IMG/VR virus record: IMGVR_UViG_2541047915_000013
Source: a virus
Lineage: Duplodnaviria; Heunggongvirae; Uroviricota; Caudoviricetes
DNA: 35,881 nucleotides
Direction: 5' to 3' (one strand)
Within the stretch, counting starts at the first letter, position 1. Each line of letters starts with the position of its first letter. Below the pieces are notes generated by a model. That model did not search any database and was not told where the DNA came from. It saw only the letters and a program-made list of their open reading frames with translations. A program made the position numbers and the translations under genes. Below are positions 8,818 to 35,428 of the stretch, one piece after another.

Positions 8818-8892
8818 AAGGCAGTCTCTCCGGTTGTAGAGGGGGTCTGCCTATGTTCTGGTTGATACGCGCAGGGTGCACGCGATGGGGTT

Positions 8893-8910
8893 TGTATGGG
8901 AAATGGCACA
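8893..8910. promoter_or_regulatory. TGT-N12-ACA element upstream of FI (candidate Ogr-dependent late promoter)
   Basis: TGTATGGGAAATGGCACA in the G-FI intergenic region. Confidence 0.4.
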
Positions 8911-8951
8911 ACGACGGGGTGAAAAGATCCCCGCAGGCGCGGGGCAGGAAT

Positions 8952-9554
8952 TTAAAATTCTGGTAGTTCGGGCCAGTTAATATCAGGGGCTGTGCTGATA
9001 TCTATTGCTGCTACCACGTCGATATAGTCAAGAACGGAATCGAGCTTTACTGTTTCTTCCGCAGTTAATTTTCTTCCCGCCTGCAATTTTAGTTGAATCA
9101 GAACAATGGAAGACATGGCATCATCAATCAGTGACTGGCGTTGCAGTTCAGCCCCTTCCACTGCTGCGTTATGTTGCGCTTTGGTATCCGTCACCCATTT
9201 CTCACCATCCCACTTATCGTATGGTGTTAACGGAGCAATAGTGGTTGTCTTTTCAGGGTAATCTCCCGGCACTGTGATTTCTTTTGAGTCCCCCGTTTCG
9301 GTGTTATAGACGATTTCACCGCGATGGTCTGGCACATATTCCCATGATCTCAAATCCAGAGTTCGACAGGACACATAACCTGACTTATATGAACCAGGAG
9401 CATCTAAACACGAATGTGCGGGAATACCGACGCCAACAGCAAGATATTCAGTTGATTCAGAAATATATTCCCGTGTTTCACCATCATAGTTATAGACGGT
9501 AATATTCCCCGCCTTCGTGGCAATAAGTTCGCTATTTAATACGGCTTTATCCAT
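8952..9554 (-). CDS. G: Tail fibre assembly protein (gpG-like)
   Basis: 200 aa directly downstream of the tail fibre gene. Confidence 0.8.
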   Translation of the reverse strand: MDKAVLNSELIATKAGNITVYNYDGETREYISESTEYLAVGVGIPAHSCLDAPGSYKSGYVSCRTLDLRSWEYVPDHRGEIVYNTETGDSKEITVPGDYPEKTTTIAPLTPYDKWDGEKWVTDTKAQHNAAVEGAELQRQSLIDDAMSSIVLIQLKLQAGRKLTAEETVKLDSVLDYIDVVAAIDISTAPDINWPELPEF

Positions 9555-11179
9555 TACGCAGCTCTCACGATATAGTTAAATGCAATATTTCGTGGACGGG
9601 TTTCGCTCCCACCTGTGTTACCAATACTCCCTCGTGTATGTAGCGTTGGTGATGGAATCAGAGTCCCTCCGGCATCGGCAGCATCAAGCCCCCGGCCTTG
9701 CGTATATGCTTTTCTGAAGATTGCCGCCAGTTCCCATTCCTCTTTTGAATCATACCCATCGTTGGCTACAACCATATGGCGGTGTTTTTCCAGCATTCCA
9801 GCCTGAAGGCTCAATAAAGCACGCCCAGCATCAATACCACGCCCATCATCCCAGCCACGAATAAACTCACCACGTAAATCGGGCAATTTATTTGTCGGAT
9901 AAACCTTTGCCAGTTTGGGATATTCTTCAGCCGAAAAAGCCGCTCCGTTGCATTTCAGCCAGCCTGTCGGTGGAGTGGCAGAAGGCCACGGAACAGGGAC
10001 ACCAACAGGTAATGCAGAGCCATCCCCTAAACCAAGATAATCAAGAACGCCCTGTGCGCTGGGCTTGCTAAGAATGGCACGCCCAACACTTGTCAGTGCA
10101 GTTAAGGCAGCCCGATCTTCCCCTGTAAAATAAGGGAGTTTATCTTTTGATGTAGAAAGCCCTGCCAACGCTGTTAAAGTAGCATCCTTTGGCTGCTTCC
10201 CCGCAAGGGAGTTAGTTATTGTCGTGGCAAAGTTCGGATCATTCCCCAGCGCCGCTGCCAGTTCGTTCAGCGTATCCAGTGCCGCAGGTGCAGAACCCAC
10301 CATGGCTGCAATTGCCGATTTCACAAAAGCGGTAGTGGCAATCTGTGTATTGTTGACCGACTGCGCCGCCGTGGGAGCTGTTGGCGTTCCGGTAAGTGCC
10401 GGACTCGACAGCGGCGCTTTCAGTGCCAGCGCATTGTTAATGGTGGTGCTGAATTTCGGGTCATTGTTTATGGCTGCGGCTATTTCTTTCAGCGTGTCCA
10501 GCGTGGCTGGAGCACCATTAATAACGGCCTTCAGTGCCGCCTGAACAAACGCGGTGGTCGCAAGTTGCGTGGTATTATTCCCCGCCGCTGGCGTTGGCGC
10601 TTTGGGGGTTCCGGTAAATGTTGGGCTGGCTTTTGGCGCATACTGTGAATGTGGATCTGGTGCGGCAAGGTGTTTTGCCATCAGATCATCCACGTACACC
10701 TTCAGCTCCAGTGCCTTGTCATCCACATACTTGCGGGTTGCCAGCACTATAGCAGGATCGATTTTCAAGGTGATATTGTCCGTGCTGCTGGTAATCAGCA
10801 CCATGCGCACGGTCTGGGTGCGCCCGCTGCCTTCAGCCAGTTGCGGCTTATAGCTTTCCGGGCAGTTGCCCACGGCAATCAATGCCCCTGACTCATCAAA
10901 CAGGCCCACTTCACGTATCCACCAACCGCCCTCGTTTTCAGGGATCACCTGTTCAGCAATAATCTGGCTGCTGTTCTGCGGGTCGATATAGAGCATATTC
11001 AGCGCAGCCCGGCGTTTCTCATTTACCAGTGCAGTCTGCTTTGAGTCTGGCGTTGGCAATACTCCGCCGCCATCGCCGACCGCCATATGGGTAATTTTTA
11101 GCGGCACACCGAGCGCGGCGGCGCTGGCAAGTTTCGCCGCGCCAATATCCGTCAGCAGGGTATAAAATTTTGTGCTCAT
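9554..11179 (-). CDS. H: Tail fibre protein H
   Basis: 541 aa; N-terminus MSTKFYTLLTDIGAAKLA is gpH-like; internal tandem repeat; variable C-terminus. Confidence 0.85.
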   Translation of the reverse strand: MSTKFYTLLTDIGAAKLASAAALGVPLKITHMAVGDGGGVLPTPDSKQTALVNEKRRAALNMLYIDPQNSSQIIAEQVIPENEGGWWIREVGLFDESGALIAVGNCPESYKPQLAEGSGRTQTVRMVLITSSTDNITLKIDPAIVLATRKYVDDKALELKVYVDDLMAKHLAAPDPHSQYAPKASPTFTGTPKAPTPAAGNNTTQLATTAFVQAALKAVINGAPATLDTLKEIAAAINNDPKFSTTINNALALKAPLSSPALTGTPTAPTAAQSVNNTQIATTAFVKSAIAAMVGSAPAALDTLNELAAALGNDPNFATTITNSLAGKQPKDATLTALAGLSTSKDKLPYFTGEDRAALTALTSVGRAILSKPSAQGVLDYLGLGDGSALPVGVPVPWPSATPPTGWLKCNGAAFSAEEYPKLAKVYPTNKLPDLRGEFIRGWDDGRGIDAGRALLSLQAGMLEKHRHMVVANDGYDSKEEWELAAIFRKAYTQGRGLDAADAGGTLIPSPTLHTRGSIGNTGGSETRPRNIAFNYIVRAA

Positions 11180-11781
11180 GGATTCACTCTCATTGTGTCA
11201 ATAACATGGACCGCCCCGCCTTCATGCGCGGTGCTGCCGGAAATAATTGTTTCGTTGATATACGGATAGATCGTGATTTCTTCGCCAAGATAGCTGGCGG
11301 CTCCCACCCAATGCGGGCCGCTGGTCTGCAGGTTGATGGACATGCCGATCATGTGACGGCTACATGGTTTGGCATCGCTTATCAGTCGCTCAAGTTCCAG
11401 ATAGGTATCTTCAGTGATGCCCTGGTCCTGCACGCCGATATCCAGACGAAACGTGCCCGGTGCCTCTCCGGTCTGCCACCACTCAATAATGCGGATCAGA
11501 AAGCCGAACGGCTCCACCACCCGCCGCACGGCACTGGTGGTTCCTTTATGCTGATGAATATAAAAAGCATCCTTCACCACCTGGCGCTTGACGCTTTCTG
11601 TCCAGCCCTCGTCCCAGCGATCCACAGAGAACGCCCAGGCGAGATAAGGCAGGAAACTGATCGGACAGGTTGCCGGATTCCACAAGTCACGCAGCGGCAC
11701 CTGCAGATCAGAAATCCCGCTACAGGTCTGCGCCAGTCGGCGCTCCAGTGGCGTTGAACCCGGTGGCAGCAGACTATTCAT
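11176..11781 (-). CDS. I: Baseplate protein I
   Basis: 201 aa, P2 gpI-like, overlaps H and J by a few nt. Confidence 0.85.
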   Translation of the reverse strand: MNSLLPPGSTPLERRLAQTCSGISDLQVPLRDLWNPATCPISFLPYLAWAFSVDRWDEGWTESVKRQVVKDAFYIHQHKGTTSAVRRVVEPFGFLIRIIEWWQTGEAPGTFRLDIGVQDQGITEDTYLELERLISDAKPCSRHMIGMSINLQTSGPHWVGAASYLGEEITIYPYINETIISGSTAHEGGAVHVIDTMRVNP

Positions 11782-12682
11782 CCGTTCCTCCGTTGGTCAC
11801 GCTCCACTGCGTACATGATGCCGCCTGCGTTTTGTTCAGAACCACATCCGCCAGCGGAGAAGCCAGTTCCACACGTTGAACACCCTCAACATGCAGCGCG
11901 GCAAAAATAGCACTACGGCGAATATCCCGACCGAGCCGCGTCTGACTGGCGATGTACCTCTGCAGGCTGACTTTTGCCGCTGCCATTACCGGCTCTGCTT
12001 CCGGTCCCGGATAAAGAAAAATGGTGGCTTCCACACGGTACGGGATGATTTCTGCGCTGCGAACCGTCAGACGGTCAGCCACCGGGCGGACATTCTCACT
12101 GTTCAGGGCTTTCTCCACCACATCCAGCAAATCTTTTTCTGCTGTTCCGTCGCCTTCACGGCTCAGGACAGTCAGTACCACCTCTGCAGGTGCCGGACTG
12201 GTTGCACTGGCATCCGCCACCCGACCGTCGGCGCTTCGGGCATGAAATTCATAAGCGGCAGTTGGCCCCGCAACAGAAAGCCCTTCAAAGGCTGCGGGCA
12301 CACGCAGGCGTAACGCTTCATCGCTTTCCATCACAGCCGCAACGGGTGGCACAGCGTCATTATCAGCAGGCGTCACCGTCAGGCGTTTCACGTTGTAGTT
12401 GGCAGCGAGCTGGTCAAGATCGCCGCCCATCGCGTAAGCCACCATCACCGCCTGCGCGGCTTCGTTAATGCGCTGGCGCAGAAGCAACTCACGGTAAGCG
12501 TTCTCCTGCAGCAATTTGGTGACGGGTTCAGATTCCAGTTCCAGCGTGCGGATCACTGCTTCCTGCTCATCTTTCGGATGAAGCGCCACAAATTCTGCCT
12601 TGCGTTCGGCAAGCAGCGTCTCAAAGTCCGGCACATCCACAATCTGCGGCGCAGGCAACTGCGAAAGGTCAATCACTGCCAT
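11774..12682 (-). CDS. J: Baseplate assembly protein J
   Basis: P2 gpJ-like; start placed at the ATG at 12682 (MAVIDLSQLPAP), giving 302 aa; the ORF is open to 12721. Confidence 0.85.
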   Translation of the reverse strand: MAVIDLSQLPAPQIVDVPDFETLLAERKAEFVALHPKDEQEAVIRTLELESEPVTKLLQENAYRELLLRQRINEAAQAVMVAYAMGGDLDQLAANYNVKRLTVTPADNDAVPPVAAVMESDEALRLRVPAAFEGLSVAGPTAAYEFHARSADGRVADASATSPAPAEVVLTVLSREGDGTAEKDLLDVVEKALNSENVRPVADRLTVRSAEIIPYRVEATIFLYPGPEAEPVMAAAKVSLQRYIASQTRLGRDIRRSAIFAALHVEGVQRVELASPLADVVLNKTQAASCTQWSVTNGGTDE

Positions 12683-19621: not shown

Positions 19622-21388
19622 ATGAACACCACACTGACACCCGCAGATCTCGATCCCCGTCGGCAGGCCATGCTGCTGTACTTTCAGGGATACCGCGTAG
19701 CCCGCATTGCTGAAATGCTGGGCGAGAAAGTTGCAACCGTTCACAGCTGGAAAAAACGCGACAAGTGGGGTGACTATGGGCCGCTGGATCAGATGCAGCT
19801 CACCACCGCCGCACGCTACTGCCAGCTCATTATGAAGGAGCACAAAGAAGGGAAAGATTTCAAAGAGATTGACCTGCTGGCGCGCCAGTCTGAGCGCCAC
19901 GCGCGGATCGGCAAGTTTAACAATGGCGGCAACGAAGCCGACTTAAACCCTAACGTCGCCAACCGCAATAAAGGCCCACGCCGTCAGCCGGAAAAGAATG
20001 TTTTCACCGATGAGCAGATTGAGAAGCTGGAAGAAATCTTCCATTCCTCCATGTTCAACTACCAGCGCCACTGGTGGGAAGCCGGAAAAACCAACCGCAT
20101 CCGCAACCTGCTGAAGTCACGCCAGATCGGCGCGACCTTCTATTTTGCCCGTGAAGCCCTGATTGACGCCCTGCTTACCGGACGTAACCAGATTTTCCTT
20201 TCTGCCAGTAAGGCTCAGGCCCACGTCTTTAAACAATACATCATCGACTTCGCCAAAGAAGTCGAGGTGGAGCTAAAAGGCGATCCGATGGTGCTTCCTA
20301 ACGGAGCTACGCTTTACTTCCTCGGCACCAATGCCCGCACGGCCCAGAGTTATCACGGCAACCTGTATCTGGATGAATATTTCTGGATACCGAAATTCCA
20401 GGAGCTGCGCAAAGTGGCTTCCGGGATGGCTATTCACAAAAAATGGCGACAAACCTATTTTTCCACGCCATCCAGCCTGACCCACAGTGCTTATCCGTTC
20501 TGGTCCGGTGCGCTGTTCAACCGTGGACGCAACAAAGCTGACAAGGTGGACATCGACCTGTCCCACAGCAATCTGGCCCCCGGCCTGCTGTGCGCAGACG
20601 GGCAATACCGCCAGATAGTCACCGTGGAAGATGCGGTGCGCGGCGGCTGTAACCTGTTCGACCTCGACCAGCTACGCTTGGAGTACAGCCCGGACGAATA
20701 CCAGAACCTGCTGATGTGCGAGTTCGTGGACGATCTCGCGTCCGTGTTCCCGCTCAGCGAACTGCAGGCGTGCATGGTGGACAGCTGGGAAGTCTGGACC
20801 GACTTTCATGCACTGGCCCTGCGCCCGTTTGGCTGGCGCGAAGTGTGGATCGGTTATGACCCGGCAAAAGGTACGCAGAACGGCGACAGTGCCGGATGCG
20901 TGGTGGTGGCTCCGCCAGCCGTGCCGGGTGGTAAGTTCCGCATTCTTGAGCGTCACCAGTGGCGCGGGATGGACTTCCGCGCCCAGGCTGACGCCATCAA
21001 AAAACTCACCGAACAGTACAACGTGACCTATATCGGTATCGACTCAACCGGCGTTGGTCACGGGGTTTATGAGAACGTGAAAGCGTTCTTTCCTGCCGTC
21101 CGGGAGTTTGTCTACAACCCCAATGTTAAAAACGCCCTGGTACTCAAGGCCTATGACATTATCAGCCACCGCCGTCTGGAGTTTGACGCCGGGCACACCG
21201 ACATTGCGCAGTCATTCATGGCAATCCGTCGCGCAACCACCGCCAGCGGCAACCGCCCGACCTATGAAGCCAGCCGCAGCGAAGAAGCCAGCCACGCCGA
21301 TCTGGCCTGGGCAACAATGCACGCACTGTTTAACGAACCGCTGCAGGGCGAATCCGCCAATACCAGCAATATTGTGGAGATTTTTTGA
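19622..21388 (+). CDS. P: Terminase ATPase (large) subunit P
   Basis: 588 aa, gpP-like. Confidence 0.9.
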   Translation: MNTTLTPADLDPRRQAMLLYFQGYRVARIAEMLGEKVATVHSWKKRDKWGDYGPLDQMQLTTAARYCQLIMKEHKEGKDFKEIDLLARQSERHARIGKFNNGGNEADLNPNVANRNKGPRRQPEKNVFTDEQIEKLEEIFHSSMFNYQRHWWEAGKTNRIRNLLKSRQIGATFYFAREALIDALLTGRNQIFLSASKAQAHVFKQYIIDFAKEVEVELKGDPMVLPNGATLYFLGTNARTAQSYHGNLYLDEYFWIPKFQELRKVASGMAIHKKWRQTYFSTPSSLTHSAYPFWSGALFNRGRNKADKVDIDLSHSNLAPGLLCADGQYRQIVTVEDAVRGGCNLFDLDQLRLEYSPDEYQNLLMCEFVDDLASVFPLSELQACMVDSWEVWTDFHALALRPFGWREVWIGYDPAKGTQNGDSAGCVVVAPPAVPGGKFRILERHQWRGMDFRAQADAIKKLTEQYNVTYIGIDSTGVGHGVYENVKAFFPAVREFVYNPNVKNALVLKAYDIISHRRLEFDAGHTDIAQSFMAIRRATTASGNRPTYEASRSEEASHADLAWATMHALFNEPLQGESANTSNIVEIF

Positions 21389-22419
21389 TGGGAAAGAGTA
21401 AGAAGAACCGCGCTGCGGCGACGAAACAGATCCAGCTTAAAAGCCAGACTACAGCCGAAGCATTCAGCTTCGGCGATCCCGTTCCTGTTCTGGATCGCCG
21501 AGAACTGCTGGACTATGTGGAATGCGTACAGATGGACCGTTGGTATGAGCCGCCCGTCAGCTTTGACGGACTGGCGCGCACCTTCCGCGCTGCCGTGCAT
21601 CACAGTTCCCCGATTGCAGTAAAGTGCAACATTCTGACCAGTACCTATATCCCTCATCCGCTGCTCAGCCAGCAGGCTTTTTCGCGTTTTGTACAGGACT
21701 ATCTGGTATTTGGTAACGCCTACCTGGAGAAACGCACGAACCGATTCGGTGAAGTTATCGCCCTTGAGCCTGCGCTGGCAAAATACACCCGACGCGGGTT
21801 AGACCTGGATACCTACTGGTTTGTGCAATACGGTATGACAACCCAGCCGTATCAGTTCACGAAAGGCAGCATTTTTCATCTGATGGAACCGGACATCAAC
21901 CAGGAGATCTACGGCCTGCCCGGTTATCTTTCTGCCATTCCGTCAGCTCTGCTCAACGAGTCCGCCACGCTGTTCCGCCGCAAGTATTACATTAACGGCA
22001 GTCATGCAGGCTTCATCATGTACATGACCGATGCTGCGCAGAACCAGGAGGATGTGAACAACCTCCGCAATGCGATGAAAAGCGCCAAAGGTCCTGGTAA
22101 CTTCCGTAACCTGTTTATGTACTCGCCTAACGGTAAAAAGGACGGGCTTCAGATTATCCCGTTGTCAGAAGTGGCGGCGAAGGATGAGTTCCTGAATATC
22201 AAGAACGTGAGCCGGGACGACATGATGGCGGCGCATCGTGTGCCGCCACAAATGATGGGGATAATGCCTAATAATGTCGGGGGGTTTGGGGATATCGAAA
22301 AGGCAAGCACAGTATTTGTACGAAATGAGCTACTGCCTCTACAAAAAATGTTTCTAGAAATAAATAATTGGTTAAACGATAGAATTATAAATTTTTCAAC
22401 CTACGAACTAAAAATTTAA
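21385..22419 (+). CDS. Q: Portal protein Q (3' end low-GC)
   Basis: 344 aa, gpQ-like; the last ~45 codons are AT-rich like the adjacent cargo. Confidence 0.9.
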   Translation: MMGKSKKNRAAATKQIQLKSQTTAEAFSFGDPVPVLDRRELLDYVECVQMDRWYEPPVSFDGLARTFRAAVHHSSPIAVKCNILTSTYIPHPLLSQQAFSRFVQDYLVFGNAYLEKRTNRFGEVIALEPALAKYTRRGLDLDTYWFVQYGMTTQPYQFTKGSIFHLMEPDINQEIYGLPGYLSAIPSALLNESATLFRRKYYINGSHAGFIMYMTDAAQNQEDVNNLRNAMKSAKGPGNFRNLFMYSPNGKKDGLQIIPLSEVAAKDEFLNIKNVSRDDMMAAHRVPPQMMGIMPNNVGGFGDIEKASTVFVRNELLPLQKMFLEINNWLNDRIINFSTYELKI

Positions 22420-22436
22420 TTAAGATAATTTAGTCG

Positions 22437-22454
22437 GCCTCATTTCTGAGGCCA
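22437..22454. terminator. Hairpin between the convergent Q and ATPase genes
   Basis: GGCCTCA-tttc-TGAGGCC, followed on the plus strand by ATATTTT. Confidence 0.4.
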
Positions 22455-22459
22455 TATTT

Positions 22460-23890
22460 TCATCTTGAAAGTATCACCCGTTCAAACAATGGCATTAATT
22501 GAGAATAAACATTATCATAATGTTCATCATTTAAAAGATGATATTTATTTTCAAGTTTGATGCTATTAAAACCATCCATGAAACTCTCATAACCAACAGT
22601 GCCAATAATAATCTGATTTGTAAGGGAAAACCCATCCAAGCATAGTTTTATAAGCTTATGCGTATGCTCTGGATCCAAATCTTGTTGCTTTGGAGAGTCT
22701 ATTACTATAGGCATATTCTCAACTGAAGAGTTGCTTTTCATAACACTAAGTAGCGCGTAGTGAAATGCAAATATACCTCGAGGACCTCGACTACCAGTCT
22801 TACCCTTAGTAATATTATTATAACTACTAAGGCCACCTACCTTTGTATTTTCGACACCAAGCTCTTTAAGAGCTTTAGCGAAATACTCTTTGAAACAGTC
22901 ATTTATTTTAACAGTTCTTTTCTTATCATTGTATACTTCTAATTCTTCTTGTAATTCTGTCAACTCGCCTTCTTTTCGACCAATCTCAACGAATAACTCA
23001 TCTAACTGTGAAACAAAAGTAGATTCAATTTCATGGTATGCAGCAGATTTAATAACATCATGAAGCGTTATTTCCGATTGAGTTTCTAAAATCAGCGCCT
23101 GCAACGCCTCTGAAGCAGCCCTTGACTCTTCTAGCTTTTGATTCAATTTAGGAATATTTTCCTCAATCTTGCTTTTCTCATCTGCAAGAACAGCAATGTT
23201 TTTGAGCATTTCATCTCTATGGTTTATATAATTATATTCATTTACTGAATAAGCAACATTATCATCTCGAAAATTCGAAATCTCAAATTCATTATCAATA
23301 ATCGCAGTTATCTCTTTGAGTTCACTCTCAAGGAAATTCTTCCTAGAATATAACCTCAAAAGATTCAATCTATATTCTGTCTGAACTAAATTCAAATTAG
23401 AATATTCATTTAATATACGTTCTAACTTTGATTTATAAAAATCCAAATCAACATCAAATAAAACCACACCAAAAGATTCATCAATCTTACTTTTGCTTCT
23501 TTTTAGAACCTTAACAAAACCATCTAACTCTGAAATTTTAACTTTAACTTCTTTGATTTTCCCTTGAACTGTGTAATATTCCTTTGGCTTAATTCCAGAG
23601 TGATAGTAAAGAATGTTTTTTTGCCATTCTGAGTACATACTCATGTTTTCGAAAGAATTTATCACCGCTTTCCATCCTTCATCCTGATCAATAAAGAATG
23701 GGGCAAACAAACAAGCAGGGTTTGCCTGAGTCGTAGCACCCGTATATTTATTATGTAATTCCAGTTTAAAACCAAATATATTTGAAACACGAGATGCTAA
23801 TGACGAAATCGTGTTATACACGACTAGATCATCATTCTTCAAATCAAAGACACCAATAATCTTTTTATAACGCAAAAAAAATAAAATCAC
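22460..23890 (-). CDS. SMC/ABC-type ATPase, C-terminal part (LmuB/DUF3732-like), separated from its P-loop by a frameshift
   Basis: Long coiled-coil region, then PIVIDSP (Walker-B-like) and DPEH (H-loop-like); no Walker A in this ORF; about 30% GC. Confidence 0.6.
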   Translation of the reverse strand: MILFFLRYKKIIGVFDLKNDDLVVYNTISSLASRVSNIFGFKLELHNKYTGATTQANPACLFAPFFIDQDEGWKAVINSFENMSMYSEWQKNILYYHSGIKPKEYYTVQGKIKEVKVKISELDGFVKVLKRSKSKIDESFGVVLFDVDLDFYKSKLERILNEYSNLNLVQTEYRLNLLRLYSRKNFLESELKEITAIIDNEFEISNFRDDNVAYSVNEYNYINHRDEMLKNIAVLADEKSKIEENIPKLNQKLEESRAASEALQALILETQSEITLHDVIKSAAYHEIESTFVSQLDELFVEIGRKEGELTELQEELEVYNDKKRTVKINDCFKEYFAKALKELGVENTKVGGLSSYNNITKGKTGSRGPRGIFAFHYALLSVMKSNSSVENMPIVIDSPKQQDLDPEHTHKLIKLCLDGFSLTNQIIIGTVGYESFMDGFNSIKLENKYHLLNDEHYDNVYSQLMPLFERVILSR

Positions 23891-24134
23891 TTTCCCCGTT
23901 ATTAATTTCCACCAGTGTAACTATATCATCTGATTTCCAAGCATCATCAAGCCTTAAATCTCCACCTAATGTGTAATAAAGACTTTTAATCAGGCTTGAT
24001 TTACCAACATCATTTGTACCATATATGAAGTTAACCCCTTCTGAAAACTCATAAGAAAAAGCTTTTCTGTCTCTTAATGAGAGTATTTTTATATTTTTAA
24101 ATTTAACGTTATTCTTCATAAGAAACATCCTCAA
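23865..24134 (-). CDS. SMC/ABC-type ATPase, N-terminal P-loop fragment
   Basis: Walker A GTNDVGKSSL; frame ends inside a T8 tract where the downstream ORF continues in the +1 frame. Confidence 0.6.
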   Translation of the reverse strand: MRMFLMKNNVKFKNIKILSLRDRKAFSYEFSEGVNFIYGTNDVGKSSLIKSLYYTLGGDLRLDDAWKSDDIVTLVEINNGESDFIFFAL

Positions 24135-25188
24135 AAGTCAACTTTATAATTGCATATATAGCAATCATAAATTTCTCTTCTTGATTTAATAAAGAGAAAT
24201 CCCCGTCCCCCGCTGCAATTGTTTTTTCGAGTGTAAAGAAGAGGTCTCGAACAGGTATCTCACGATAATGCTCTATACTCTTTAGAGCCGATTGAAATTC
24301 CAGAAAATAAAGATAGTATATTGAATTGACATTGAGCACTTTTATTGATATGCGTGTAAAAACTGATTGTAATTTAATCCCCTCATAAGGATCTGAGAAA
24401 GTACCAAGCAACATACAAACCTGTTCCCATTTTGGCGTTATTTTTATGCTTGCAATGAGTCCAGATAATAAATCAGTTACAAATTCTGAAGATATACCTT
24501 TCTTTAGTACTAAATCTTCAAAAGTTTTGATATCACTAGAAGCAACACTAACCTTCTCATTACACTTATTGATTAATAATTTAGTGAATGCTGTTGAATT
24601 AATACCATGATCATCCCCAAAGTAAGAATTCAAAAAAACTGCAACTTTCCCGTATAAATGTGAGTTAGGATCTAACAAACTAAGATCAGATGTTTTAAAT
24701 TTTATTTTATCAAGAGGAACTTCTTTTTTAGTATTTAGCTGCTCTTGAACCTTACTAATTATAATTTCCTTATGCTCATTATTAAGATCACTACCTTTTT
24801 CGTTATTATCATTTAAGAAATCGAATCCAGCATTCGATAACAGAACCATATAAATTTCGTGACCAACGAATTGATAGAAATGGTCATATAGTTTTGCAAC
24901 AAATGATTTAGGTTTAGCTTTTGTTGCGTTCACTATTGCTGCGAGTGTCCATTTACCATCTTTTTTTGTTTTAACTTGGATAAACTCAGCACTAGTCGGA
25001 GAAACAGATGAATTCAATACAAGAATATCGTCATGATATTCAAATAGAAATAAATATTTCTCCTTTTCTTTTTGTTTCTCAAGTAAATAATTTATCCCCC
25101 AAGAGGCTTGATATGAAAAGCCTCTCAACGCGTTTTCACCGCCCCGTTCTGCTTGATTTACTGTAATTAACGCATCTGATAACGCCAC
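24109..25188 (-). CDS. PD-(D/E)xK nuclease-like protein of the Cap4/DUF4297 type (LmuA-like)
   Basis: N-terminal GGENALRGFSYQ ... YHDDILVL ... EFIQVK motifs; GTG start with AGGGA ribosome-binding site; about 30% GC. Confidence 0.55.
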   Translation of the reverse strand: MALSDALITVNQAERGGENALRGFSYQASWGINYLLEKQKEKEKYLFLFEYHDDILVLNSSVSPTSAEFIQVKTKKDGKWTLAAIVNATKAKPKSFVAKLYDHFYQFVGHEIYMVLLSNAGFDFLNDNNEKGSDLNNEHKEIIISKVQEQLNTKKEVPLDKIKFKTSDLSLLDPNSHLYGKVAVFLNSYFGDDHGINSTAFTKLLINKCNEKVSVASSDIKTFEDLVLKKGISSEFVTDLLSGLIASIKITPKWEQVCMLLGTFSDPYEGIKLQSVFTRISIKVLNVNSIYYLYFLEFQSALKSIEHYREIPVRDLFFTLEKTIAAGDGDFSLLNQEEKFMIAIYAIIKLTFEDVSYEE

Positions 25189-25497: not shown

Positions 25498-25731
25498 TTA
25501 ATGCAGCCAGCTGTCGTCTTCCCACACCTTCTGCATAATTTTCATCACTTGTTTTCTTTCTTCGTCCTGTTGCAGTCCGGTCAGTTCCACACCGTTAGAG
25601 CTACCTTTGCGGATACGAATTACCGTTTTGGGATACAGGGAGCGCAGATTGCGGTAAAGCTCGGATTCAAGGGCGTCCATGGTAGACTGGCTAATCTTCT
25701 GCTCTTTATCGATCATTATTTCAATGCGCAT
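25498..25731 (-). CDS. DinI-family protein (DNA-damage-inducible protein I-like)
   Basis: MRIEIMIDKEQ...LESELYRNLRSLYP...VWEDDSWLH resembles DinI; start set at the internal ATG at 25731; the ORF is open to 25803. Confidence 0.7.
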   Translation of the reverse strand: MRIEIMIDKEQKISQSTMDALESELYRNLRSLYPKTVIRIRKGSSNGVELTGLQQDEERKQVMKIMQKVWEDDSWLH

Positions 25732-25741
25732 AAAAGTCACC

Positions 25742-25930
25742 TCAGCTGATGACATCCATTGAGCGGTTGTATTCGTGGGTTCTGATTTTTGCCATGAGTT
25801 CATCAGTCAATTCAGAAACCCACTGCAGAGCCAGCCCCTTATCTTCATCACTACACTCACTAGCCGCTACAAGCTTAAGAAAAAAATCAATGCGCTGGAG
25901 CTTCAAAGACTCCAAAAAATAGTCCTGCAT
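25742..25930 (-). CDS. Hypothetical protein, first gene of the LexA-box operon
   Basis: ATG at 25930 preceded by AGGAGG; LexA box about 45 bp upstream. Confidence 0.5.
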   Translation of the reverse strand: MQDYFLESLKLQRIDFFLKLVAASECSDEDKGLALQWVSELTDELMAKIRTHEYNRSMDVIS

Positions 25931-25971
25931 CTTTCCTCCTATGACACCACACGCAATACTGTATGTATAAT

Positions 25972-25991
25972 CACTGTTTATATTTACAGTA
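25972..25991. promoter_or_regulatory. LexA (SOS) box
   Basis: CACTGTTTATATTTACAGTA fits CTGT-N8-ACAG. Confidence 0.65.
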
Positions 25992-26083
25992 TATAATAAT
26001 CTTACTGATGTAAAACGTTTTTTTACGTTCATCAGCCTGATATGCCTGGTATTATTAAGAGCACGAATTGTTAACCCGCGTAA

Positions 26084-28498
26084 TTAATACAGGTTCCGCC
26101 ACTGATCATCTTCCTGCAAACGCTGGTTCCGATAGAAGATACGCAGGCCTGCTCCTGACGGAATACTGCCTCCGCGAAGGAGTAAATCGACCTCTTTCTC
26201 GCTGCCATCAAATCCTCTGGACTTCAGCTCATACACGAGCTGCAGTCGCTGATGGTCTGTAATTCGCTGTTTGTAGTCTTTACGCCGTTTCGGTTTCACC
26301 TGGCGTAACCTTGCAGCCAGTTCCCGGCGCTCTTTTTTGCTCATACTGTGCAGGTAATCGTGCAACTCCTTGTCATTCATACAGGTAATATCCGTTCTGG
26401 AGTCCCCATCAGCTGATTTGTCTTTCCCTTGTTGGTTCAAATTTTCAGCAAGGGGACAGTTATTGCCACGAGTCCAAGGGGCGCAAGCGCCCTGGTCGGC
26501 TGCCGCCTCCTGAACGTCAACGGCCTTACGAACTATTTTCCACTTCACTGCATGAGTGCAGATCTTGCCCTCTGCAATGGGTGACCAGATGCCATAAATA
26601 CGAATGCCGTGATCGCCATAGGCGGTCGGCTCTTCGTTGATTTCATAAGCGGTTCTGATCAGGTGATATTTGCGGGGAACCAGTACGCCGCCCTGCTTCA
26701 TGATGTAGGTGGCAAAACAACCAGCATCAGCAGCAGCCAGGATTGCATCAAGGCGCGGGTTATCCAGTACCGGCGCACCTGCTTTTTTGTCCCCCTGTTG
26801 CCTTGCCGCCTGACCAGCCAGCAATCGCAGTTCACGGTAAGCCTGACGCCCCGGAATGCCAAAGAAGCGGAATTGCTGAACACGATGCAGAGACGCCCAG
26901 GCATTAACGTATTCAGCGTTATCACGCAGGGATTTACCCGTTTCCTTGCTGATCTCGCCAGCCAGACCACGCCCGTCAATGTTCTTACTAATGTATTTCG
27001 CGATGTAGCTTGTCGGCGTTCCTTTGCGCGGGTTAATCAACTCAGACTTAAAGCGCGGCCCTGTGTTATTGCCCAGCTCCTCGCGGTCTTCACGGATGGC
27101 AAACTTACGCAGTAATGCAGTGATGGCGCGGCGGTCTTTTTTGCGCATAAAACACAACAGGTGCCAGTGAACTGTACCGTCATGATGCGGCTCAGCCACC
27201 CGCACGCCATACCACCGCAATCCGGCTTTGTGCATCGCCTTACGAAATGCAGCAAACATGCCGACCAGATAATCACTGCTTTGTCTTACCGTCGCATTTG
27301 TCCAGGTTGGGTTGGGCCTGCCGTTATTTAGCGTGGAATGGAAACGTGACGGACAGGTGATGGTGTAGAAAACGGCGCAGTCACCGCGCATTTCCGCGAT
27401 AAGCTCCAGACCTTTAACACAGGCCATCATCTCATTGCGGCGATGCGCAGGGTTGCTGCTGCTGGCGTTTACCACATCTTCCATATCCAGCGTGTCGCCG
27501 TCTTCGTTCACCAGTTCATGAGAACGAAAAAACTCCAGCGACTTACGGCGCTGCTCACGTTTATGCATCACGGCTTCATAGCTGACATAGGGGGATGCTT
27601 TTTTGCTGACCAGGCAGACAGCACGCAACTGCTCTTCCCGCCATTCGCAACGCATCTTCCATAATTTCCGATACCACCAGTCGGCACACAACATACGCGC
27701 CAGCGAACCCGGAATGAGTTCATAGGGCACGGGTTTACGGCGGTTTCTTTTCCGACGGAGTTGCTCAAACGCAGGCGGAATAACATCCAGACGCAGGGTT
27801 TCCGCTGCCACCTTTTCCCATGTTTTGCGGATTTCTTCTGGCTTAACGTCATCGGTGGCATACAAATCGCCACAAGCTGCATCAAGACACATGCTCATAT
27901 GCGCAGCAACAAGGGTGGACAGGCGTTTCACCTGATCCTGACTCATTTCAGGCAGGATCAGCAGGCCGTCCAGCCCTTCATGGCTTGCCATAAAGCGAAA
28001 AGAAGTGGATAGCTGACTCTCGCGTACATGCTCCAGTCGTTCCAGACATGGCTTAATCGTCTCACGCAAATAGCGGGAATAAGCCTTTGGCCTGCCCAGG
28101 CTGCTGAAGTATTCAATACGTTGCATCAGCGGCTTGCTGATATGGGAAGGCTGGGCGTTGACGTCCGCCAGAATGACCATGTCTGGATTAAAACGCTGCT
28201 GCTCATGCGCCAGCTTTGCCCGGCTAATGAGCTTATCCTGCTCCATTTCGCGCTGGACAGGATCACGGGATTCATTAAAGAAATAACGCTCCCAGACCTG
28301 ATCACTCAGTGCCTCACGGCGCAGTTGTTCCTGCTCGTTATCGGCAGCGTACAGAGTGATCAGGTTTGAAAGCGCAGAAACCGGCGCAACTTCCGCCGGG
28401 TCCAGATAAGGGTTAATAGCCTTTTTCGGGCTGTTCCATGAGAATGCTGCGGCGGCCTCGTTAAAGCCGCTGCAGTTGTTCATATCAGCATGGCTCAT
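26084..28498 (-). CDS. A: Replication initiation endonuclease A (rolling-circle initiator)
   Basis: 804 aa; HxH motif (VHWHLL) and YIAKYISK tyrosine motif; gpA-like. Confidence 0.9.
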
Positions 28499-31293: not shown

Positions 31294-31926
31294 ATGATAC
31301 AGGTAAAGGTTGGAGAGAATACAGGGGGAAGAGAGGCTATCCATAGACTAATGGCAGCCTATGATTTCAAGTCCAGACAGCAACTTTGCGATCACTTAGG
31401 CGCATCAAAAAGTACCATGGCAAACAGATACTTAAGAGATAGTTTTCCTGCAGAGTGGGTGATTCAGTGCGCCTTGGAAACAGGAGTTTCTTTACTGTGG
31501 CTAACCACCGGACAGGGGGAGCCAGGTCCAAACATTGAACCTAAAAAAAATATCAATTCCGTGAACTCCAGCAAGGTTGTACCTCTTTCTGAACTAGTAT
31601 CTCCTGAAATTGACAAGGCGACTCTCAACGGTGGTTTATTGGTCGATGCTGGAAAAGCAATCATTGATAGCAGCATACTCCCCTCAGACTCAAGCAACCT
31701 ACTGCTGGTGACTACTTCTGGTGATTCTTATTTAATAGATCGCAACCAAACACCACCAGTAAATGGTATGTGGTTAGTCGATATTGACGGGATAAAAAGC
31801 ATTGTTAAATTGACTCGACTTCCGGGAAACAAATTAGTAGTGCATCAGGATGATTCATCGTTTGAGTGTGGCCTAGATGACATTGAGGTAGTAGGCCGCG
31901 CACTGAAAATCATTAAGAGCCTTTGA
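31294..31926 (+). CDS. cI: CI-like immunity repressor
   Basis: 210-aa protein with N-terminal helix-turn-helix-like region; co-oriented with int. Confidence 0.7.
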   Translation: MIQVKVGENTGGREAIHRLMAAYDFKSRQQLCDHLGASKSTMANRYLRDSFPAEWVIQCALETGVSLLWLTTGQGEPGPNIEPKKNINSVNSSKVVPLSELVSPEIDKATLNGGLLVDAGKAIIDSSILPSDSSNLLLVTTSGDSYLIDRNQTPPVNGMWLVDIDGIKSIVKLTRLPGNKLVVHQDDSSFECGLDDIEVVGRALKIIKSL

Positions 31927-33324: not shown

Positions 33325-35058
33325 CTACTCAAGGAGATATTCTAACTCATCTTTTATCGGGATAATTTGCTCATAAAGTCGGTGATATGACTTCCCAATT
33401 GCGCCTCTAAATTGTATTAACTTTGGTGGCTTACTACCTATATTAATAATATGGTCTTGAGCTATACCTGGGTAGGGATCAATAAATACAATTTCAGATA
33501 TACCTAACTGATAAGCTTTTTTCGCACACAACTCACAGGGACTGGCAGTTGTATACAACTTCCCCCCCAGAACGCCAATACCACCATATTTTGCAAGTTG
33601 CAAAAATGCGTTTTCCTCAGCATGTAATGCACGTGTATGAACTTGATTACCTTTTTTCTCTTTATCAAGATCATTATGTATATCTTTAAAACAATAAGAT
33701 AAGTTCCTGCCTCTATAAATATCACCAGTTTTATCTATCGCCCTAAAATTTAAGAGTTTCTCATTAGCTTTAATTCTGAAAGAACTATTATTTCTCTCAT
33801 AATGACTGTACGTTTTTTCATCAAAATCGTTCATTAGGCCATCTAGAGATCTCATAGAGCAAGGAATCTGACCGTTGGCAACATCATTCCAACCAACTGA
33901 TTTTATTGAATTATCACCATCAGTTACTACAGCTCCCACCTGTCTAGATATACAGCCAGAGTTTAATTTTACCGTATACGCAACTTGCATAACCCTTTCC
34001 ATTGCAGTAGGTGTTATCAGACCAGGATGCTTCATCAGTGCGATGTACCACGCTAATTGTGCTTTTAAAATATTGTCATTATCAAATTCATTTTTTGGGT
34101 TAAAAATGTGTATATCTGATAGTTCAATACATTTAGTTACATTTGGATTGGTGAGATGTTTGTAAGAGTTATCACCTTTACCTGACTCTACAGAATCTAT
34201 TTCCTCTATCTGCTTTTCTGAAAACTTATGTAGTTTCCGCAAATAGTTTGTTCGATGTTCATCCGGGGCATTTATTGACATTAAATGAAATGCAGAATAT
34301 CTATCCTTAAAAAATTTTGCCTCATATGGATTTCTAATAGCATCTATGACAATTAATGCGTTATCTCTTTTGCTTTTTCTTATTAATTTAATAACCCTAT
34401 TAATAGTTTCCGGCAAATGAAAAACAGATTTAGGCATAAACTCTTTATCTTCAAAATCGACTTCAATACGCCCACGACGTCTAATTGACTTACCTGCTAA
34501 CTGATAGGCTGAAACATATAAATTTGAGTTTATCTCATTTAGTTCAGCTTTGAATTCTTTAGTAAATTTTCTAACTAACTTCAAAATTGATATAAATTTA
34601 TTAATCGTTTTTTCATCAAGCTTCAATTCACTATTATGATCAAGCAAATTCTCAATTACATTTTTAAATCTTGTCAAAATGAGATTATCTGAGAATACAC
34701 CAAAAGTTAATACAATATCTAAATGCTCTTTACTGATAGATTTATTAGATGATAGAATGAATTCAGAAGCTTCCTCAGCTGTTAACATCAGAAGATACGC
34801 TGAGATTAGGTCACTCACCTTAATTGAGTAAAAATTTTCCCAGTGATTTTCTGCGAATTTTTTAACTATATTATAACGATGGACATCCAATCCCTTGTAA
34901 AACCCCTGTAATTTACTTACATCAGGGAAGACTGTTTTTTCGTTTTCAAGAATATTAGCTGTTGTTGTGCAACCAGAACCAGTTCGACCTGTCAAACCGA
35001 CTAAAATAAACTGCCCATTTTCAAGGAAAAGCTCACTAACGAATTTTTTTTCTTTCAT
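33325..35058 (-). CDS. P-loop kinase-like / cytidine deaminase fusion protein (AvcD/dCTP-deaminase-like accessory gene)
   Basis: N-terminal P-loop GRTGSGCTT; C-terminal deaminase zinc motifs HAEENA and SPCELC; ATG at 35058; about 30% GC. Confidence 0.7.
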   Translation of the reverse strand: MKEKKFVSELFLENGQFILVGLTGRTGSGCTTTANILENEKTVFPDVSKLQGFYKGLDVHRYNIVKKFAENHWENFYSIKVSDLISAYLLMLTAEEASEFILSSNKSISKEHLDIVLTFGVFSDNLILTRFKNVIENLLDHNSELKLDEKTINKFISILKLVRKFTKEFKAELNEINSNLYVSAYQLAGKSIRRRGRIEVDFEDKEFMPKSVFHLPETINRVIKLIRKSKRDNALIVIDAIRNPYEAKFFKDRYSAFHLMSINAPDEHRTNYLRKLHKFSEKQIEEIDSVESGKGDNSYKHLTNPNVTKCIELSDIHIFNPKNEFDNDNILKAQLAWYIALMKHPGLITPTAMERVMQVAYTVKLNSGCISRQVGAVVTDGDNSIKSVGWNDVANGQIPCSMRSLDGLMNDFDEKTYSHYERNNSSFRIKANEKLLNFRAIDKTGDIYRGRNLSYCFKDIHNDLDKEKKGNQVHTRALHAEENAFLQLAKYGGIGVLGGKLYTTASPCELCAKKAYQLGISEIVFIDPYPGIAQDHIINIGSKPPKLIQFRGAIGKSYHRLYEQIIPIKDELEYLLE

Positions 35059-35253
35059 CACGTCCCACTTATGAATGCAAGAACAATTAACATATTAATT
35101 GTAATTTATTAACTAATTTTATTCTAGATACTTGATGTAATGGCGGCACTTTGGCGGCAGAGCATTAAAAACGCGTAAGACGAGCAAATACAAAATAACA
35201 CTAACACATTGTTTTCAAACATAATCTACTGTTTTTACTATAATAAAAATGGT

Positions 35254-35299: not shown

Positions 35300-35428
35300 T
35301 CATGATTGGACGGTGTAAGGACAACACCAACAAAAACAGGAAGTTAGAAGTCTCAGCAGGACACCGACCAGACGGTGAGGAGACATAAAAGGATACGCAA
35401 AGGAGCCGCGGCTCCGAAGTGAAATGAA

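Follow-up and report, generated by a model that had tools for sequence, protein, structure and literature searches.

A Type I Lamassu Locus with a Homopolymer Frameshift in lmuB, a Probable Pseudogene, in a P2-Like Prophage of Escherichia coli

The closest described relatives of the locus reported here are two Lamassu defence systems. In the type I system of Bacillus cellulasensis NIO-1130 (BcLmuAB), a Cap4 nuclease, LmuA, is followed by an SMC/Rad50-like protein, LmuB, and there is no LmuC (10.1101/2025.06.23.660979). The type II system of Vibrio cholerae (VcLmuACB, or DdmABC) follows the same logic, in that the Cap4 effector is held by an LmuB dimer, the system senses DNA ends and the effector forms a tetramer (PMC12663957). 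In these homologues the LmuB dimer keeps one LmuA monomer inactive, and DNA ends together with ATP turnover free LmuA, which tetramerises into the active nuclease (10.1101/2025.06.23.660979; PMC12663957). Mutation of the Walker A lysine of LmuB eliminates ATPase activity (Bc and Vc proteins), and defence is lost or weakened (Vc K40A and Ec K42A) (10.1101/2025.06.23.660979; PMC12663957). Mutations in the LmuA-LmuB interface lower defence by BcLamassu, and LmuA expressed without its partner aggregates (10.1101/2025.06.23.660979). We analysed a stretch of 35,881 nucleotides (nt) from IMG/VR virus record IMGVR_UViG_2541047915_000013, referred to below as the window, which carries a locus of this kind. 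As in BcLmuAB, a Cap4 LmuA gene is followed by an SMC/Rad50-like LmuB gene; unlike BcLmuAB, the window has one inserted base that breaks lmuB, and the carrier is an enterobacterial P2-like prophage. It differs from VcLmuACB in that lmuC is present there, whereas none lies beside or between lmuA and lmuB in the window.

From profile matches and gene order, the locus is identified as a two-gene type I Lamassu, lmuA-lmuB. LmuA matched the Pfam family PF14130 (Cap4_nuclease) over residues 15-212 with an E value of 1.4e-33, and the PADLOC profile PDLC00243 over positions 1-360 of 361 with an E value of 4e-143. The second gene, lmuB, is encoded on the same strand directly after lmuA. When one T is removed from the T8 run described below, the resulting protein (repaired LmuB) matched PADLOC PDLC00255 over positions 2-549 of 550 (E value 5.9e-253), and the match was continuous across the junction. 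In a sequence search of the PDB, which returned N-terminal fragments of Rad50 only, residues 6-79 of LmuB aligned with the N-terminal lobe of that ABC ATPase; the solved LmuB chains are too distant in sequence to be matched in this way. Repaired LmuB has a Walker A motif of the form Gx4GKS (GTNDVGKS, residues 34-41) and a deviant Walker B, PIVIDS, at residue 470. The Walker B variant of short Lamassu systems is hhhhD[Q/S/T/E] (PMC12663957), and PIVIDS matches this form. A CxxC zinc-hook motif was absent from the LmuB sequence. A long coiled-coil arm between the two halves of the LmuB head is predicted from the full-length profile match. No LmuC gene was found, lmuA and lmuB being the only genes between the DinI-like gene and the portal gene, and two small open reading frames (ORFs) upstream of lmuA had no PADLOC match; since there is no third gene, the locus is assigned to type I (LmuA-LmuB). 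An intact LmuB reading frame, which a type I system should have, is missing, as the T8 run ends translation after 84 residues, and we read the window as holding a Lamassu locus in which lmuB has become a pseudogene. The features of the locus are as follows.

24109..25188, minus strand: lmuA, intact, 359 residues, with an N-terminal Cap4 double-stranded DNA nuclease domain (Pfam and PADLOC).
22460..24119, minus strand: the whole of the lmuB pseudogene, 1660 nt (intact gene, 1659 nt, 552 residues), assigned through its T7-repaired form by the PADLOC LmuB match and amino acid identity to LmuB of E. coli VG888-46E9.
23865..24119, minus strand: 5' fragment of lmuB, 84 residues, with Walker A and an out-of-frame end, ...DFIFFAL and stop (sequence and Rad50 alignment).
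22460..23890, minus strand: 3' remainder of lmuB, an open stretch of 476 codons in the +1 frame (sequence reading).
23874..23881, minus strand: A8 on the plus strand, T8 on the coding strand, where the one-base insertion lies; in the ancestral T7 state the codons are ATT TTT TTG (I-F-L).

The plus-strand sequence from 23861 to 23895, as read in the window, is CTTTTTATAACGCAAAAAAAATAAAATCACTTTCC. Across the junction the coding strand reads GAA AGT GAT TTT ATT TTT TTT GCG TTA TAA, and the upstream ORF stops at the TAA at 23865-23867. The downstream ORF runs from a GTG at 23890 to 22460 (476 residues) in the +1 frame relative to the upstream ORF, with which it shares 26 nt. A preliminary description of this DNA had reported an ATPase gene split by a frameshift at the A8/T8 run, and its coordinates, frames and overlap were correct except for one start codon; it had not named the system. 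It had also proposed that removal of a single T would fuse the two ORFs, which is the case, although the fused ORF, starting at ATG 24119, has 552 residues and not the approximately 560 proposed. Similarly, the 3' end that it gave for the Walker A fragment, 23865, stands, but its start, a TTG at 24134, does not; ATG 24119 is the start in all annotated relatives, which leaves a fragment of 84 residues. This ATG is preceded by GAGGA, and there is an 11-nt overlap with the stop end of lmuA. The inserted T maps to lmuB codons 80-82. The sole start candidate for the 3' remainder is the GTG, located 3 nt after GGGGAAA. The remainder carries FFIDQ (residue 141), which is likely the Q-loop region, a long middle region and PIVIDS, and thus Walker A and Walker B of the window lmuB sit on separate fragments. 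The two ORFs are not chance neighbours, because the repaired protein fits the LmuB profile without a break at the junction and is identical to the intact protein of VG888-46E9.

The Lamassu cassette was present in 11 of 5,426 complete E. coli genomes, and nine of the 11 cassette-bearing loci were compared. All nine carry lmuB as a single gene of 1659 nt; the tract is T7 in eight of them and TTTTCTT in the remaining one, IZSBS22. A scan of a collection with one genome per species gave a single relative, from Tatumella punctata, whose homologue has 89% amino acid identity and reads GAT TTT ATC TTC TTA CGT in an uninterrupted frame. In both IZSBS22 and Tatumella, the T run is broken by synonymous changes and the ORF is kept. 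A two-gene arrangement with the same boundary, which the preliminary description had named as a result that would refute its reading, was found neither in the nine E. coli loci nor in Tatumella. Together with the LmuB profile match, these single-gene homologues uphold its proposal that one ATPase gene of a defence system has been broken by a one-base change in a T run. Twelve Klebsiella phage records matched at 99.4%, the matched stretch being one base shorter than the query. In a collection of 15 billion proteins, six intact LmuB alleles were found on 436, 228, 146, 105, 49 and 15 contigs (approximately 979 in total), compared with approximately 9-10 contigs for T8 alleles, or roughly 1% of the cassette contigs. 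The comparison of alleles shows T7 to be the ancestral state, with T8 derived and rare.

The same searches bear on the distribution of the cassette. At 99.4% identity, lmuAB is present in records of Klebsiella pneumoniae phages, Kp4845-2 and 11 others like it (35,561 bp), and the labels on exact LmuB alleles are Klebsiella, Salmonella and Enterobacteriaceae. The cassette therefore passes from genus to genus with hardly any change.

Two other runs in the cassette have been lengthened elsewhere.

23616..23622, minus strand: A7 run in lmuB, frameshifted (A8) in other isolates, as read from the tail of protein P0003.
24632..24638, minus strand: T7 run in lmuA, T8 in E. coli L73, from comparison with L73.

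Protein P0003, which has 176 residues and was found on 24 contigs, ends in ...WQKKHSLLSLWN followed by a stop. This tail is the out-of-frame reading past the A7 run, which argues that the run is A8 in those isolates. With the T8 alleles described above, the cassette is disrupted at three distinct 7-base runs, in approximately 1-3% of contigs, and homopolymer lengthening is, as judged from these alleles, a recurrent route of cassette breakage. In E. coli L73 (NZ_CP033378.1, 1614-2694), lmuA is annotated as two genes and lmuB is intact; the split lmuA of L73 is known from a single complete genome, and a sequencing error there is possible.

Repaired LmuB is identical in amino acid sequence to the intact S77 allele found on 49 contigs, and at the nucleotide level repaired lmuB is one synonymous base apart from that of VG888-46E9, with the same protein. 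The window LmuA is the commonest allele, the exact sequence being present on 963 contigs. The 3' remainder shows no disabling change beyond T8 when compared with the intact alleles. The lesion is recent, as the gene carries no further damage and, once repaired, encodes exactly the protein of an allele found unbroken on 49 contigs.

We consider it likely that the window holds an ordinary, recent and rare knockout of lmuB by one added T, and that Lamassu is defective here. In an intact system, the released LmuA tetramer, a Cap4 nuclease, would degrade DNA and the infection would be aborted. In the window, the most likely origin of the lesion would be replication slippage that added one T to the T7 run of lmuB. 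Translation from the normal start then ends after 84 residues, so that of the head just the Walker A portion is made, and the other 476 codons, which include the Q-loop, the middle region and Walker B, are out of frame and have no good start. The break, at approximately residue 80, falls within the N-terminal lobe of the ATPase head and not at a domain border. LmuB would be absent and LmuA would be left without its partner. We infer that lmuB is null from the location of Walker A on an 84-residue peptide, the out-of-frame position of the rest and the break inside the head lobe; Lamassu is thus most likely non-functional in this strain.

The preliminary description had left three options for the split gene: a sequencing error, an inactivating mutation or a slippage-prone tract. 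The evidence favours the inactivating mutation; each homologue compared has one lmuB gene, in which the tract is either T7 or interrupted. A sequencing or assembly error, by which the strain would truly be T7 with an intact lmuB and the extra base would be a homopolymer miscall, we judge unlikely. A one-base length change in a homopolymer is admittedly the classic error site, the lesion on the S77 haplotype is known from one NCBI assembly and one Logan contig only, and lmuB is perfect apart from the extra T. However, such an error is difficult to reconcile with the clean alignment to the nearest prophage. The window sequence is identical to NCBI assembly GCA_000460795.1, scaffold KE702030.1, and is 99.73% identical to E. 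coli VG888-46E9 over 17,950 bases, within which A7/A8 is the only indel, apart from one at 35418, where the alignment decays at its 3' end; a further aligned block of 8,283 bases is free of gaps. The other A8/T8 runs in the window, at 31543 and 35044, agree in length with those of VG888-46E9, which argues that the assembly has no general homopolymer weakness. Moreover, the exact 84-residue and 476-residue products are also present on a contig of 10-20 kb from Logan, which assembles public reads independently. On the N77 haplotype (the window is S77), 8 contigs, drawn from NCBI, ENA and Logan, likewise carry the truncation ending in FIFFAL, and the N77 T8 allele has at least four GenBank protein accessions, from at least four further assemblies. 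The same lesion on a second haplotype indicates that T8 alleles exist in nature, and these observations point to a genomic lesion rather than a read error. Several points nevertheless weigh against the knockout. T8 in the window strain was read from assembled sequence, and the Logan contig may stem from the same reads, in which case a systematic read error would recur. The loss of function of the T8 allele is itself a prediction from sequence. Ribosomal +1 slippage on U8 could possibly give a trace of full-length LmuB, and the stop of the first fragment has a GTG 23 nt before it, so both fragments are translatable in principle. The last point raises the case of a working split gene, in which the 84-residue and 476-residue pieces are both made and reassemble into active LmuB. 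Rad50 heads can be reconstituted from halves expressed separately, the PDB entries matched by LmuB are N-terminal fragments of Rad50, and the GTG, with GGGG upstream, lies in the ORF overlap, all of which would suit such an arrangement. The Rad50 N-terminal fragments that fold, however, have approximately 147-203 residues, whereas the break in LmuB is at approximately residue 80 in the N-terminal lobe and not where head and coiled coil meet; the spacing from GGGG to GTG is just 3 nt, and the two-ORF layout was seen in no homologue compared. We therefore regard a working split gene as extremely improbable.

The third option, a slippage-prone tract, is true only trivially, in that the run is a hot spot of mutation, and nothing points to a selected or programmed switch. 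In its stronger form it would make the tract functional, either as a reversible phase-variation switch or through decoding of T8 to full-length LmuB, by +1 ribosomal frameshifting or transcriptional slippage, so that the system would be throttled and not dead. T8 arose at least twice and two more 7-base runs have been lengthened elsewhere, which shows that tracts in both genes are mutable. A +1 re-pairing of phenylalanine transfer RNA (tRNA-Phe) on U UUU UUU G would restore the exact wild-type sequence, and a switch could pay, as over-expression of Lamassu is toxic (PMC12663957). Nevertheless, we find a functional slippery tract very unlikely. The off state is rare, with T8 on roughly one in a hundred contigs, and the run is interrupted synonymously in IZSBS22 and Tatumella and hence dispensable. 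When the codons of lmuAB were shuffled synonymously 2000 times, 2.9 ± 1.4 A/T runs of at least 7 bases were expected compared with the four observed (P = 0.32). The run is 8 nt long, short of the 9 or more A/T that efficient slippage typically needs, and in bacteria slippery runs typically show signs of being selected against once they reach 9 nt (PMC1088944). In E. coli, slipped transcription on A/T runs leads to insertions, deletions in runs being rare (PMC5574713), and transcriptional rescue of T8 requires -1 or +2 in the RNA. As to a ribosomal +1 shift, no stop or slow or rare codon directly follows the run. Nor is the prfB arrangement matched, as the G-rich stretch lies too far upstream. 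Programmed recoding was rejected on the grounds that the homologues have a single frame and the tract is not conserved. In known genes with programmed slippage (dnaX of Thermus with A9, insertion sequence elements with A9/T9; PMC1088944), an A/T run lies where two frames meet, as it does here; their tracts and two-frame layout are conserved, usually with at least 9 nt, whereas the layout of the window is found only in rare alleles. A phase-variable contingency locus was also rejected, as T8 is rare, the runs are not enriched and neither IZSBS22 nor Tatumella retains the tract. Phase-variable restriction-modification systems and contingency loci are the known class for comparison. Phase-variable restriction-modification resembles lmuAB in that a defence gene is turned off by a change in homopolymer length that recurs in independent isolates; the lmuAB tracts, unlike those of that class, are short (7-8 nt), unenriched and unconserved, with a rare off state. 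One could still envisage the A/T runs of lmuAB as de facto reversible switches, with slippage from T7 to T8 or A7 to A8 turning the system off when it is costly and reversion remaining open to it. An abortive-infection system, which possibly also restricts plasmids, would thereby be silenced, and T8 might leave a trickle of LmuB. The support for this lies in the recurrence at three tracts, while reversibility and selection fall outside that evidence, and we hold the reading as a whole to be highly doubtful.

With the knockout of lmuB as the preferred explanation, the finding is real but ordinary, as type I Lamassu, the gpA-gpQ location (see below) and the homopolymer-frameshift type of lesion are all already known. 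For annotation, it means that an 84-residue "AAA family ATPase" and a 476-residue "hypothetical protein" are pieces of one lmuB pseudogene, and that defence-system callers should count this strain as Lamassu-defective. The alleles disrupted at three 7-base runs form a natural isogenic on/off set for tests of the cost and benefit of Lamassu.

The host element is, as judged from its genes, a P2-like prophage of E. coli integrated beside ssrA. The window spans smpB and the transfer-messenger RNA gene (698-1060), the P2-like prophage and an annotated anti-phage deoxycytidine triphosphate (dCTP) deaminase. Around the cassette, the gene order is gpA, a small ORF, DinI, lmuA, lmuB, Q and P, with the following neighbouring features.

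26084..28498, minus strand: P2 replication gene A, one border of the hotspot (relatives' annotation).
25742..26032, minus strand: small ORF between gpA and DinI, 96 residues as listed and 62 residues in the relatives' annotation.
25498..25803, no strand assigned: DinI-like gene between gene A and lmuA (relatives' annotation).
22436..22453, no strand assigned: GC-rich, terminator-like hairpin between the convergent ends of Q and lmuB (consensus scan only).
21385..22419, plus strand: P2 portal gene Q, the other border of the hotspot (annotation of 99.7%-identical relatives; Pfam Phage_portal on the same contig).

The small ORF at 25742-26032 had no Pfam or PADLOC match. A promoter scan was uninformative (12 sites compared with 13.4 expected), and one version of the P2 cos sequence was not found in the window. 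The G+C content of the Lamassu cassette is 31-32%, compared with approximately 55% for the prophage. The cos-proximal gpA-gpQ hotspot is the site of old/tin in P2, and other P2-like prophages carry a variety of defence systems there (PMC9122126); the window cassette sits in this hotspot, between gene A and gene Q (PMC9122126; PMC13586616). According to a 2026 survey, defence pseudogenes are rare in P2 hotspots (PMC13586616). The window lmuB fits as one such rare case, and the approximately 1-3% of disrupted contigs of the cassette agree with that report, in which pseudogenes are rare but not absent. In E. coli EC50 (1-1162) and L73 (606-1325), the hotspot has extra cargo upstream of lmuA, replacing or beside DinI/gpA. 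Both carry an HNH endonuclease there and EC50 an AAA ATPase as well, an example of modular swapping at the hotspot.

Further differences and neighbours were observed outside the hotspot. The tail-fibre region of the window (8819-10217) differs from that of VG888-46E9 (9319-12028), which has a gene for an invertase-like recombinase and additional genes for tail-fibre assembly, none of them in the window. The ssrA gene at 698-1060, with the tag ANDENYALAA, adjoins the prophage, and a hypothetical ORF of 160 residues (1184-1666) separates ssrA from the ogr end of the prophage. Just beyond the integrase end, at 33325-35061 on the minus strand, is a gene of low G+C content that is annotated as an anti-phage dCTP deaminase in the 99.7%-identical relatives, a second defence gene that flanks the prophage. 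Its lysine-rich start derives from an A8 run (35044-35051) of equal length in the relative.

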